Source of the DNA: Candidatus Altiarchaeota archaeon
GTDB lineage: Archaea > Altiarchaeota > Altiarchaeia > IMC4 > SCGC-AAA252-I15
Assembly (NCBI GenBank): GCA_043804895.1
Contig: JAZDIN010000004.1
Span: 8,887-72,886, forward strand
Length of the DNA: 64,000 bases
Reading direction: 5' to 3'
This document shows positions 11,361 through 50,780 of the stretch, in pieces. Position 1 is the first letter of the stretch. Every line of letters begins with the position of its first letter. The translations under genes were made by a program, and so were the position numbers. The notes under the pieces are model-generated. The model was not told the origin of the DNA and did not search any database. It was given only the letters and a program-made list of their open reading frames with translations.

Positions 11361-11783
11361 ACTACCGAATCGTTCGTCCACGAATTCGCGGACGCTCCTG
11401 TCTTCGTGCGAGTCTTGGTAGAACGGCTTCTTCAGCCACTAAGCGAAATCACTTAGCGCGCCAGCTTTTGATAAGCTTTCCGCCCGCTAGGAGGGGCGAA
11501 ATCTGGGCTTGATGGACTTCCTGGAACTCCTTTTCCATATACTTAACTACGGGTTGCGGAAGCCTATAAATGTGATTTTTATACGCTAAATCTATTATCT
11601 AATTCAATGGAAGGGGGTTCCTACATCTATTGGACGGTTGAAGCAGATGAGTACTCTAGGGGGAATCCTATCCTACAGTTGTTGCTGTTGCTTAGGCTGC
11701 GAGCGTAGATTCGTCTAACATTCTACGGCTCGCATGTGATAAGATGCCAAGATTCTATTTTACACACGGGAGGTATGCGACAT

Positions 11784-11885
11784 CAACGACCAGCGGCCTT
11801 AGCCGCTGGTTTGATAAGCATGAAACCGCAATATTAGATGCATACATTAACCGCCCACCCAAAGGGGGGCGGTTTCATCGCTTAT
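11784..11885 (+). repeat. 102-nt structured element, copy X (divergent copy; its 3' end overlaps the leuA start codon)
   Basis: caacgac-cagcggc-ctta-gccgctg-gtttgataagcatgaaaccg...ccgcccacccaaaggggggcgg-tttcatcgcttat. It has the same length and two-domain fold as copies Y and Z, with compensatory changes. It is flanked by AT (11782-11783) and ends in AT (11884-11885). Confidence 0.75.
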
Positions 11886-13407
11886 GAATCAGTTCTGGTA
11901 CGACAGGAATGTCGAACCTAAGGGGAAGCCGAAGAGGATTCAGGTTTTTGACACCACGTTAAGGGATGGAGAGCAGACGCCGGGAGTCAACTTCACTGCC
12001 GAGGATAAGAAGGAGGTAGCCTCGGCCCTGTCGAAGCTGGGGGTGGACTTTATCGAAGCCGGATTCCCAATCTCAAGCGAGGGGGAGTTCAAGGCAGTTA
12101 AGGGGATAAAGGAGCTGGGACTCAAAAGCAGGATAGTCGGCCTCGCCCGCTGCGTCGGGAAGGACATGGACGCGGCGTTGGACGCTGGCGTAGACATGGT
12201 CCACATTTTCATAGGCACTTCGCCGATTCATAGGGAGTATAAGCTGAAGATGACGAGGGAGGAGATTCTGAAGAGGGCGCAGGAGAGCATACAGTATGTG
12301 AGGGACCACGGGGGTAAGGTGCACTTCAGCCCTGAGGACGCGTGCAGGACTGAGCTCGACTTCCTGAAGGAGGTGTGCGTGATGGCTGAGTCGAATAAGG
12401 TGGAACACATCAACATCCCGGACACAGTTGGCGTTATGACTCCTGCTGCGATGGGATGGCTCATCGCGGAGCTGAAGGGGGTTGTGAAGGTTCCTCTTGC
12501 AGTTCACTGCCACAACGACTTCGGGATGGCAGCAGCGAACACGATAACGGCGGTGATGTCCGGTGCGGTGATACCGCACGTCACAGTCAACGGCCTCGGG
12601 GAGAGGGCGGGCAACGCCGACCTAGAGCAGGTCGTCCTCGGGTGTAAGCTAATACACGGTGTGGAATCGAACGTGAACACGAAGAGAATATGGGAGACCT
12701 CAAGGCTCGTGGAACGGTTGAGCGGCATTAAGGTGATGCCGAACTTCCCGATAGTCGGAGGCAACGCGTTCGCCCACGAGAGCGGAGTCCACGTCCACGG
12801 AGTCCTCGCGAAGGCCGCCACCTACGAGGCCATCAAGCCTGAGATTGTGGGTGCGAAGAGGAAGCTCGTCCTCGGGAAGCTCGTCGGCAAACACGGAGTC
12901 AAGGACAAGCTGAACGCGATGGGGTTGAAGGTCACTGAAGAGCAGGCGAGGGACATAACACAGAAAGTGAAGGACCTAGGAGACAAGGGCAAGAGAGTCA
13001 CAGAGGAAGACCTGGCCGCGATAGCAGAGGACATGGTCGGAAAAGGCTCGAAGAAGGAGAGATTGGTAGAGCTGAAGGATATGACATTGCACATGGAGTA
13101 CGGAGTGAACCCGACAGCCACAGTCGCGCTCCTTGTAAAGGGCAGGGAGAAGTATGCTAGGGCCGTGGGCGTCGGCCCCGTGGATGCGACGTTGAACGCG
13201 ATAAGGGCCGCCCTCGGAGACAAGGACATACAGTTGGACGACTACCACCTCGACGCCATATCAGGAGGGTCAAATGCCCTCGCAGACGTGTCAATCAAAG
13301 TCAGCAAAAACGGGAAAAGCACCATGGCCCGGGGAGTACACGAAGACGTCGTAATGGCATCAGTACTCGCGTTCATCAACGGAGTCAACAGGATAATGAG
13401 AAAATAG
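11884..13407 (+). CDS. leuA: 2-isopropylmalate synthase / (R)-citramalate synthase family (LeuA/CimA)
   Basis: 507 aa. It has the FDTTLRDGEQTPGV catalytic N-terminus, HCHNDFGMA, NGLGERAGNA, and a C-terminal LeuA-dimer regulatory domain. The sequence alone cannot separate LeuA from CimA. Confidence 0.85.
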   Translation: MNQFWYDRNVEPKGKPKRIQVFDTTLRDGEQTPGVNFTAEDKKEVASALSKLGVDFIEAGFPISSEGEFKAVKGIKELGLKSRIVGLARCVGKDMDAALDAGVDMVHIFIGTSPIHREYKLKMTREEILKRAQESIQYVRDHGGKVHFSPEDACRTELDFLKEVCVMAESNKVEHINIPDTVGVMTPAAMGWLIAELKGVVKVPLAVHCHNDFGMAAANTITAVMSGAVIPHVTVNGLGERAGNADLEQVVLGCKLIHGVESNVNTKRIWETSRLVERLSGIKVMPNFPIVGGNAFAHESGVHVHGVLAKAATYEAIKPEIVGAKRKLVLGKLVGKHGVKDKLNAMGLKVTEEQARDITQKVKDLGDKGKRVTEEDLAAIAEDMVGKGSKKERLVELKDMTLHMEYGVNPTATVALLVKGREKYARAVGVGPVDATLNAIRAALGDKDIQLDDYHLDAISGGSNALADVSIKVSKNGKSTMARGVHEDVVMASVLAFINGVNRIMRK

Positions 13408-30397: not shown

Positions 30398-30452
30398 GTG
30401 ACTGAGAGCCGCTGCTCTCAGACACATTCAGCAACCATTGGCTGCTGAATAT
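30398..30452 (+). repeat. Hairpin module M2 (55 nt), copy B
   Basis: gtgactgagagccgctgctctcagacacattcagcaaccattggctgctgaatat forms two hairpins joined by the conserved acacattc. It aligns with 45311-45364, with compensatory changes in both stems. Confidence 0.75.
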
Positions 30453-30554
30453 CAACGACTGCCGGCTAAAGCCGGCAGTTTGATACGCCGGAAACTACCT
30501 AGTCGAGAGGACTCCCTGAGGGTGTCCCCTGAAGGGGACAGTTTCCGAGCGTAT
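30453..30554 (+). repeat. 102-nt structured element, copy Y (intergenic, directly abutting M2)
   Basis: caacgactgccggctaaagccggcagtttgatacgccggaaact...gtcccctgaaggggacagtttccgagcgtat. The first 45 nt or so and the last 25 nt or so are near-identical to copy Z. It is preceded by TAT and ends in TAT. Confidence 0.8.
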
Positions 30555-50363: not shown

Positions 50364-50732
50364 ATGTTCTACGGGAGGAATATACCAGCAGCGTTGATGA
50401 GAAGTGGGTTAGAGGATAGGCTGCTTAGGGTGTGCGAGGAGGAGGACTTGTCCTACCTGGCATTGTTCGGCTCCTATGCTAGGGGGAAGGCGAAACCAAG
50501 GAGCGATTTGGACATAGCGATAGAGTATGAGAAAGGCGCGGATAAGACACTCTTTGACTTGATTTCATTGGAGGAGAGGTTGCGGAGGCCTTTCAGGAGG
50601 AAAGTCGACCTTGGGATTCACGATACCATAAGCCCGCACGTGATAGATAACGTCAGGAAGGACATGAGGGTCATATATCAACGACTGCCGGCTAAAGCCG
50701 GCAGTTTGATACGCCGGAAACTGCCTAGTTGA
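50364..50732 (+). CDS. Minimal nucleotidyltransferase (MNT antitoxin); its C-terminus is extended by insertion of element Z
   Basis: LFGSYARGKAKPRSDLDIAIE matches the GS...D.D NTase motif. The last 17 aa, QRLPAKAGSLIRRKLPS, are encoded by the 102-nt element and recur in the spurious ORF 30438..30650. Confidence 0.75.
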   Translation: MFYGRNIPAALMRSGLEDRLLRVCEEEDLSYLALFGSYARGKAKPRSDLDIAIEYEKGADKTLFDLISLEERLRRPFRRKVDLGIHDTISPHVIDNVRKDMRVIYQRLPAKAGSLIRRKLPS

Positions 50733-50780
50733 GTGGAGTACATGCAACTGTCCCTTGGAAGGGACAGTTTCCGAGCGTAT
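50679..50780 (+). repeat. 102-nt structured element, copy Z (inserted at the MNT/HEPN junction)
   Basis: caacgactgccggctaaagccggcagtttgatacgccggaaact...gtcccttggaagggacagtttccgagcgtat. It is flanked by TAT (50676-50678) and ends in TAT (50778-50780). Removing it restores an overlapping gene pair. Confidence 0.85.

Follow-up and report, generated by a model that had tools for sequence, protein, structure and literature searches.

Insertion sequences of the IS200/IS605 group transpose by single-strand cut-and-paste, in which subterminal hairpins are recognized and the element is inserted 3′ of a target of 4 to 5 nt without duplicating it. Transposase-less derivatives of IS200/IS605-type elements, the palindrome-associated transposable elements (PATEs), were described in Haloquadratum walsbyi and are defined by the lack of inverted terminal repeats and of target duplication, by palindromes near their termini, by having no room for a transposase, and by ends related to those of IS605-type elements (PMC3119063); they have also been seen in other genomes rich in IS200/IS605 elements (PMC10055086). 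Two other kinds of small repeat are also close to the present case: the Rickettsia palindromic elements (RPEs), which can sit in frame in protein genes (PMC10969869), and the REP/BIME repeats, structured palindromes that are tied to HUH Y1 enzymes, the RAYT (TnpA-REP) transposases (PMC8266576). In the present study, we analyzed a 64,000-nt stretch (hereafter, the window) of contig JAZDIN010000004.1 from a metagenome-assembled genome (MAG) of a Candidatus Altiarchaeota archaeon (GCA_043804895.1), in which a 102-nt structured element, X, stands directly before the start codon of leuA. X is very probably a nonautonomous, transposase-less derivative of IS200/IS605 elements, PATE-like and made up of two hairpins, that lies as a passenger in the 5′-untranslated region (UTR) of leuA. 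It is a new member of a known sort of selfish element and is very probably not a regulator of leuA.

The element begins with CAACGAC... and ends with ...GCTTAT, and its two hairpins together cover it from the first to the last base. The parse adopted in Table 1 and that of the initial annotation (11784–11885) differ only by the AT present at both ends. Hairpin 2 contains a basal helix of 15 bp with one bulged C, in which ATAAGCATGAAACCG(C), that is, ATAAGCATGAAACCGC (11814–11829), pairs with (G)CGGTTTCAT-c-GCTTAT, that is, GCGGTTTCAT-c-GCTTAT (11869–11885), and it also contains an apical hairpin, ACCGCCCaCCC/GGGgGGCGGT (11850–11873). The initial annotation was right in stating that the helix closes on the first two bases, A and T, of the leuA start codon (11884–11886), that the G-rich stretch upstream of the ATG, GGGGGGCGG (11864–11872), supplies the apical hairpin with its 3′ arm, and that a sibling copy, Z, has the same insertion geometry as X. 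When folded alone, X adopts the helix given there with a minimum free energy of −48.6 kcal/mol, and the 131-nt region folds with a z score of −4.6 against shuffles. Double-sided compensatory changes across the copies are found in 12 of the 27 consensus pairs.

Copies of the element in the host MAG (1.58 Mb in 71 contigs, 88.7% complete) were sought by pattern search and with a covariance model, R1, which was built from 10 copies and with which X, itself a member of the seed, scores 103.8 bits. The MAG holds about 14 copies of the 102-nt element family. The first hairpin is common to every copy, while the second hairpin occurs in three subfamilies: A (X, C3, C7, C24, C38, and C35), B (Y, Z, C19, and both C62 copies), and C (C20 and C25), with copy C26 left out of the grouping. 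The subfamily-A copies are 71 to 92% identical to one another, and AT stands at both ends of nearly all copies. Three long copies of 156 and 207 nt (C3:50417-50574, C7:32884-33092, and C62:2046-2203) carry at least one extra hairpin module between the two hairpins, placed exactly between ..TTTGAT and AAGC.. and again bounded by AT, and the same middle module was found with second hairpins of both subfamilies A and B. A length that is a multiple of three, as in the copies of 102, 156, and 207 nt, is ruled out as a rule of the family by the other copies, which measure 97 to 103 nt. The family is present in 12 of 61 genomes, and its distribution among the 60 relatives is patchy, some having 6 to 11 copies and most having none. 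A search of Rfam with the whole window at gathering thresholds and with 11361–11900 at E ≤ 1 returned only a chance-level match to sR19 (13.5 bits against a cutoff of 45). The leuA leader had also been said to carry a partial echo of a motif of the element; the segment in question, 11467–11501 (+), TTTGATAAGCTTTCCGCCCGCTAGGAGGGGCGAAA, does contain an exact TTTGATAAGC (a 10-mer match) and resembles a subfamily-A copy with a deleted center, but its score with the family covariance model is no better than chance (0.6 bits, E = 3), and it was not accepted as another copy. A copy that decayed or lost its interior may have given rise to this segment, although the match is not significant.

Judged from the comparison of orthologous leaders, X is an insertion. 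In the frame of the 507-aa ORF, the leuA ATG is the earliest start codon to follow a stop, the product has HMGL-like, HCS_D2, and LeuA_dimer domains and passes as 2-isopropylmalate synthase with NCBIfam NF002085 (654 bits, cutoff 517), and the orthologous proteins align from residue 1. The leaders of the leuA orthologs of 11 relatives, four of which are of the same genus, were taken as the empty-site set. The element is found in none of the 11, and in all of them a Shine-Dalgarno (SD) sequence (GGAGGT/GAGGTG) stands 6 to 8 nt before the ATG, the genome-wide peak of GGAGG spacers being likewise 6 to 8 nt. The order in the present genome is GGGAGGT, ATGCGAC, X, and the leuA ATG, and the leuA ortholog of one relative (G001) begins ATGAATCAG, just as here, but lacks X. 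Three further Altiarchaeota leuA records were inspected: the spacing is short in two of them, as expected of an empty site, and the third, from the LacPavin MAG, has different, TAT-ended hairpins. In the latter, two such modules (TATATGCGATGCA..TGCATCGCATAT and ACGGGAGGA..TCCTCCCGTAT) lie between a leader hairpin, described below, and leuA, and they lengthen the spacer between these two to 175 nt, which is coincidentally the same as in the present genome, the modules having been acquired independently. Sibling sites agree with those of leuA. The start region of GatE, where another copy is found, is empty in eight of nine fetched orthologs, the ninth (G007) being unreadable. Two subfamily-B copies, C19:13441-13544 and C62:28160-28263, lie inside otherwise intact genes, which encode a 529-aa membrane spermidine-synthase-like protein and a 451-aa coiled-coil protein, respectively; both use the single frame that is open through the element, and each adds 34 residues (YQRP..SFRAY), and orthologs of the former protein in four relatives are without exactly these residues. 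The 11 empty leuA leaders and the dispersed, patchy family support the view, offered as one alternative in the initial annotation, that X is a tolerated insertion.

The origin of the element is indicated by transposase-bearing relatives. Y1 transposases were found in 21 of 61 relatives, and weak R1 hits adjoining Y1 transposase genes were first seen in one of them, G024. In a full-sensitivity R1 search of eight transposase loci (22.9 kb), a hairpin resembling hairpin 1 (AUnAAynACC-stem-CUnAAG-stem-GGU) was detected in G024, G032, and G021 (E = 1.5e-5, 1.1e-4, and 8e-4, respectively, over the 22.9 kb), each time a short way downstream of tnpA and oriented alike relative to it; an earlier hand-written pattern had missed these hairpins owing to the stem register, and the covariance model found them. 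The elements at these loci (L148 in G024, L145 in G032, and L149 in G021) are IS200-like and carry a Y1 transposase of approximately 150 to 190 aa, and several IS200-like copies in G024 are interrupted by other small hairpin inserts. In the orientation of tnpA, the right ends of the IS200-like elements are ...GGTTGTTTAT or ...GGTCATTCAT, and TTCAT stands directly before the conserved left end (TACAyyTT.GCAAGGATA-CTGCGGGC-TTTA-GCCCGCAG...) in all three genomes, G024, G032, and G021, whereas the sequences outside TTCAT are unrelated. In the same orientation, X reads as AAGCGATG...GGTCGTTGAT with TTCAT directly before it and GTCGC directly after it, and each of the 11 copies of this genome that end in TAT has TTCAT, CTCAT, TCCAT, GTCAT, or TTTAT before it, all of which conform to NYYAT. 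By these sequence matches, hairpin 1 of X is homologous to the right-end hairpin of the Altiarchaeota IS200-type (Y1 transposase) elements.

From these relationships, we infer that a Y1 (HUH) transposase would cut and paste the element as a single strand, recognizing the subterminal hairpins, and would place it directly 3′ of TTCAT, or more loosely of NYYAT, without target duplication. Since leuA begins with ATGAA, the complement of TTCAT, X would have landed against an intact start codon, antisense to leuA and exactly between the SD spacer and the ATG, and of the two terminal ATs, one would be the end of the target and the other the final dinucleotide of the right end of the element. This bears on the proposal that the insertion regenerates the start codon. 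Removal of 11784–11885 in silico does leave gcgacATGaatcag, as had been stated, but the ATG is probably not rebuilt; with X placed after TTCAT, the complement of a preexisting ATGAA, the start codon of leuA would be the untouched target motif.

Table 1. Positions of element X, its sibling copies in the window, and features of the leuA leader.
Feature	Position	Strand	Description
Element X, 102 nt	11782..11883	−	Parsed as an IS200/IS605-type insertion; its top strand is the minus strand of the window
Hairpin 1 (ATCAacGACCAGCGGC-CTTA-GCCGCTGGTtTGAT)	11782..11815	+	−20.2 kcal/mol; fold and covariation
Hairpin 2	11814..11885	+	−28.4 kcal/mol; basal 15-bp helix and apical hairpin; compensatory changes between subfamilies
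leuA, 2-isopropylmalate synthase family, 507 aa	11884..13407	+	Opens with ATGAA, complementary to the target, TTCAT
Ancestral SD, GGGAGGT	11768..11774	+	7 nt from the ATG before insertion, now 109 nt upstream
Sibling copy Y (subfamily B)	30451..30552	−	Intergenic
Sibling copy Z (subfamily B)	50677..50778	−	Directly abuts the ATG of a HepT-like gene
TATA-like box, TTTTTATAC	11576..11584	+	About 23 nt before the ATG of the small ORF; read from the sequence as a putative promoter
Small ORF, MEGGSYIYWTVEADEYSRGNPILQLLLLLRLRA-stop, 33 codons	11607..11708	+	Ends with LLLLLRLRA-stop; five consecutive Leu codons at 11679–11693
Leader hairpin, TGCGAGCGTAGA / TCTACgGCTCGCA	11698..11734	+	RNAalifold, 14 sequences

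X resembles PATEs in lacking terminal inverted repeats, none of which are seen in any of 10 aligned copies, in having hairpins at or near both ends (hairpins 1 and 2 of Table 1), and in being too short, at 102 nt, to encode a transposase, the 156- and 207-nt copies merely adding hairpins. It is also similar to them in having one end, the right end, that is homologous to Y1-transposase elements of the same lineage. It stands beside a short fixed motif with no duplication that is evident, although in sequence the terminal ATs look no different from a duplication of 2 bp, and the family is likewise heterogeneous and modular and plays host to other small hairpin modules. X differs from PATEs in its Altiarchaeota host, in being only 102 nt long so that the two hairpins are the whole element, in having the complement of ATGAA as a target, with copies piling up on start codons, and in two further respects that weigh against its assignment to this class. 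The left part of X, hairpin 2, cannot be matched in sequence with the left end of the elements that carry a transposase, the two being alike only as GC-rich hairpins, and neither Y1 transposase (PF01797) nor TnpB-type (PF07282) genes were detected in this 88.7%-complete MAG. Insertion sequences often drop out of MAGs, and the absence of a cognate TnpA from the same genome bears on current mobility, which is outside the published definition of PATEs. Three more observations belong on the same side of the balance: another mechanism that duplicates 2 bp of its target would explain the terminal ATs equally well, the 71 to 92% identity with stems kept could also reflect selection on RNA structure, and the siting of copies at start codons is somewhat more frequent than the target motif predicts, as detailed below. 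The terminal ATs, shared by nearly all copies, would also suit a classical miniature inverted-repeat transposable element moved by a DDE transposase, such as one of the IS630/Tc1-like type, with a 2-bp AT or TA target duplication. We regard such an origin as highly improbable because the ends of the element, CAACGAC... and ...GCTTAT, are not inverted repeats of each other, and because hairpin 1 has its homolog at the end of Y1-transposase elements, all of which are flanked on the left by TTCAT.

Start codons are directly adjoined by six copies, at the LeuA, HepT, HicB-like, pyrophosphatase-like, GatE, and FtsZ-like genes, and a target complementary to ATGAA leads copies to gather precisely at such codons. 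By gene calls that are crude, in a genome that is approximately 90% coding, 31% of the noncoding ATGR sites are gene starts, and the association of six out of seven copies is therefore, with ATGR as the target, only modestly above expectation (P ~0.005, rising to 0.03 when Y and C7 are included). A first estimate that took TAT as the target (P = 2e-6) was too generous and was discarded, ATGR on the gene strand being the actual motif (P = 0.005–0.03). The target motif and the 90%-coding genome explain most of the bias. Members of subfamily A carry GGAGGG (GGGGGG in X) at a distance of 15 nt from the ATG and are sited at start codons in five of six cases, compared with one of the eight other copies (Fisher P = 0.026). 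This hints that an internal SD-like motif helps the insertion to be tolerated, but 15 nt is well beyond the 6- to 8-nt spacing of the genome. At the opposite end, the element abuts CAT on the other strand (..catAT/CAAC.., with the slash marking the boundary) in copies of relatives (L024, L025, L026, and L044) and in C20:26472 and C62:2046 of this genome; such a CAT is possibly the start of a divergent gene, and gene starts may therefore meet either end of the element. In one relative, the start codon of an acetolactate-synthase-like gene (MKGSEAIVRSLQAEGV...) lies 10 nt beyond the end of a family copy (G016:C12:144256-144358), and the GAGGG SD sequence of the gene is downstream of that copy. 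The proximity of this copy to a second gene of branched-chain amino acid synthesis is most simply ascribed to chance.

The geometry of X could also be understood if the element had been co-opted as a translational gate for branched-chain amino acid synthesis, as the initial annotation alternatively proposed. The basal helix would hide the AUG and the apical hairpin would hide the G-rich, SD-like stretch, so that translation of leuA would require melting or remodeling of X, which would act as a thermometer, by protein binding, or by metabolite sensing. In favor of a gate, the helix exists and, taken by itself, is very stable, the subfamily with the internal GGAGGG is the one concentrated at start codons, and ACCGC occurs twice in X (11825–11829 and 11850–11854), so that GCGGT (11869–11873) can form two alternative helices. 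We nevertheless consider a gate very unlikely, since none of the 11 orthologous leaders of leuA contains X, genes of unrelated function show the same geometry, the 15-nt spacing of the SD-like motif is atypical, and X matches no Rfam family. Moreover, the claim that the start codon is sequestered stands only in part. The helix is supported by compensatory changes, but in the ensemble predicted for a 341-nt context, in which other pairings compete with the basal helix, the three bases of the AUG are mostly unpaired (probabilities of 0.85, 0.58, and 0.77 at 37 °C), and sequestration by X is therefore a soft inference resting on two terminal A-U pairs.

Another way for X to be silent in protein synthesis would be its removal at the RNA level, either by splicing in the manner of an intron or by cleavage at its 3′ end to give a leaderless leuA mRNA. 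Precise excision would restore GGGAGGT-N7-ATG, and copies at the starts of essential-looking genes (GatE and FtsZ-like), together with those inside the two otherwise intact genes, fit such a process. In the predicted folds, however, the junctions lie at the feet of separate hairpins approximately 100 nt apart, where a bulge-helix-bulge structure (two 3-nt bulges, 4 bp apart) is impossible, and the flanks are unrelated between copies and provide no conserved pairing; an intron of the bulge-helix-bulge type is therefore unlikely. There is also no match to a ribozyme or intron family, and both in-gene copies occupy the sole frame that stays open (34 codons), which is needed for translation of the element but not for its splicing. 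Taken together, these points leave RNA-level removal with hardly any probability.

If X is, as we favor, an IS200/IS605-derived passenger, it would be neutral for the expression of leuA, and the start codon would be reached by one of three conceivable routes. The two hairpins, lying end to end, would loop out if they fold in the mRNA and bring the old SD sequence near the AUG; the G-rich stretch of the element, which is GGAGGG in its siblings, might weakly replace the SD sequence; or the initiation of leuA translation might simply be less efficient. A promoter inside X was dismissed on inspection, in which an AT-rich center approximately 50 nt from the ATG was seen in subfamily A with no equivalent in subfamily B.

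The leader upstream of X is more informative with respect to leucine. The 523-bp leader had been described as noncoding, but it holds a conserved ORF of 33 codons (Table 1), the only ORF with a Leu run that was returned by a genome scan for small ORFs with homopolymer runs. The ORF is present in 14 Altiarchaeota leuA leaders (13 others and that of this genome), where it has 31 to 35 codons and follows the peptide pattern ...(F/Y)x(F/Y)xTV...GNP(I/L)Lx-L(4–7)-RLR(A/E)-stop; the Leu codons vary synonymously, and conservation of the peptide extends to its N-terminal part. The hairpin noted previously in this region is real and conserved, with 7 of its 13 pairs showing double-sided covariation among the 14 sequences, although its arms are corrected to 11698–11709 and 11722–11734, and the stop codon of the small ORF (TAG, 11706–11708) lies inside the 5′ arm. 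As the TATA-like box stands at a similar distance from the ATG in this genome and in relatives (TTTTTATAC-N23-24-ATG in G002, G015, and G013), the transcript probably begins at the small ORF, which would then be leaderless, and X would accordingly be transcribed within the leuA 5′-UTR. Two further mechanisms were rejected. No conserved U-tract follows the leader hairpin, T4 runs being found in several genomes at no fixed place and being absent from some, which argues against an intrinsic terminator, and CCUCU in the 3′ flank of the hairpin, which could pair with the SD sequence, occurs in three genomes only and is not conserved.

The small ORF and hairpin are thus a better candidate than X for leucine-responsive control. 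They share with bacterial leucine leader peptides (Rfam Leu_leader) a short ORF with a Leu run before a gene of leucine biosynthesis and an end that overlaps a conserved hairpin, and they differ from these in being archeal and probably leaderless, in lacking a conserved U-tract terminator, in having a conserved N-terminal part, and in matching nothing in Rfam beyond the chance-level sR19 hit (11361–11900, E ≤ 1). No described case of an archeal leucine leader peptide turned up in the literature search. We raise as a serious but tentative possibility, suggested by the sequence features, that a leucine leader-peptide sensor exists in this archaeon, in which the progress of the ribosome along a leaderless ORF with 4 to 7 Leu codons and a stop codon in a hairpin approximately 70 nt before leuA would set the expression of leuA. 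If so, X would be an insertion between a leucine sensor and its output gene.

Comparison with the other small palindromic repeats places X in the same landscape. The family shares with RPEs the ability to sit in frame, as two siblings of X (C19 and C62) add 34 residues to otherwise intact proteins with the frame kept open, but there is no sequence relationship between the two, and X itself lies outside coding sequence, in the leuA 5′-UTR. With REP/BIME repeats it shares the nature of a structured palindromic repeat that is linked to HUH Y1 enzymes and, probably, cotranscribed with neighboring genes, whereas REPs are single hairpins of 20 to 40 bp, usually downstream of genes and high in copy number, and the X family is a two-hairpin unit with defined ends and approximately 14 copies.

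The case of X indicates that the target motif of a single-strand transposon can mimic a purpose-built regulator, and the X family should first be subtracted when structured leaders are annotated in Altiarchaeota and in similar MAGs. The family also provides natural tests of how archeal ribosomes deal with approximately 100 nt of stable hairpin between the SD sequence and the AUG and, in the in-gene copies, with palindromic inserts of 34 codons within proteins. The more valuable by-product of the analysis is the small ORF with its hairpin in the leuA leader, which, if functional, would extend amino acid sensing by leader peptides to archaea.

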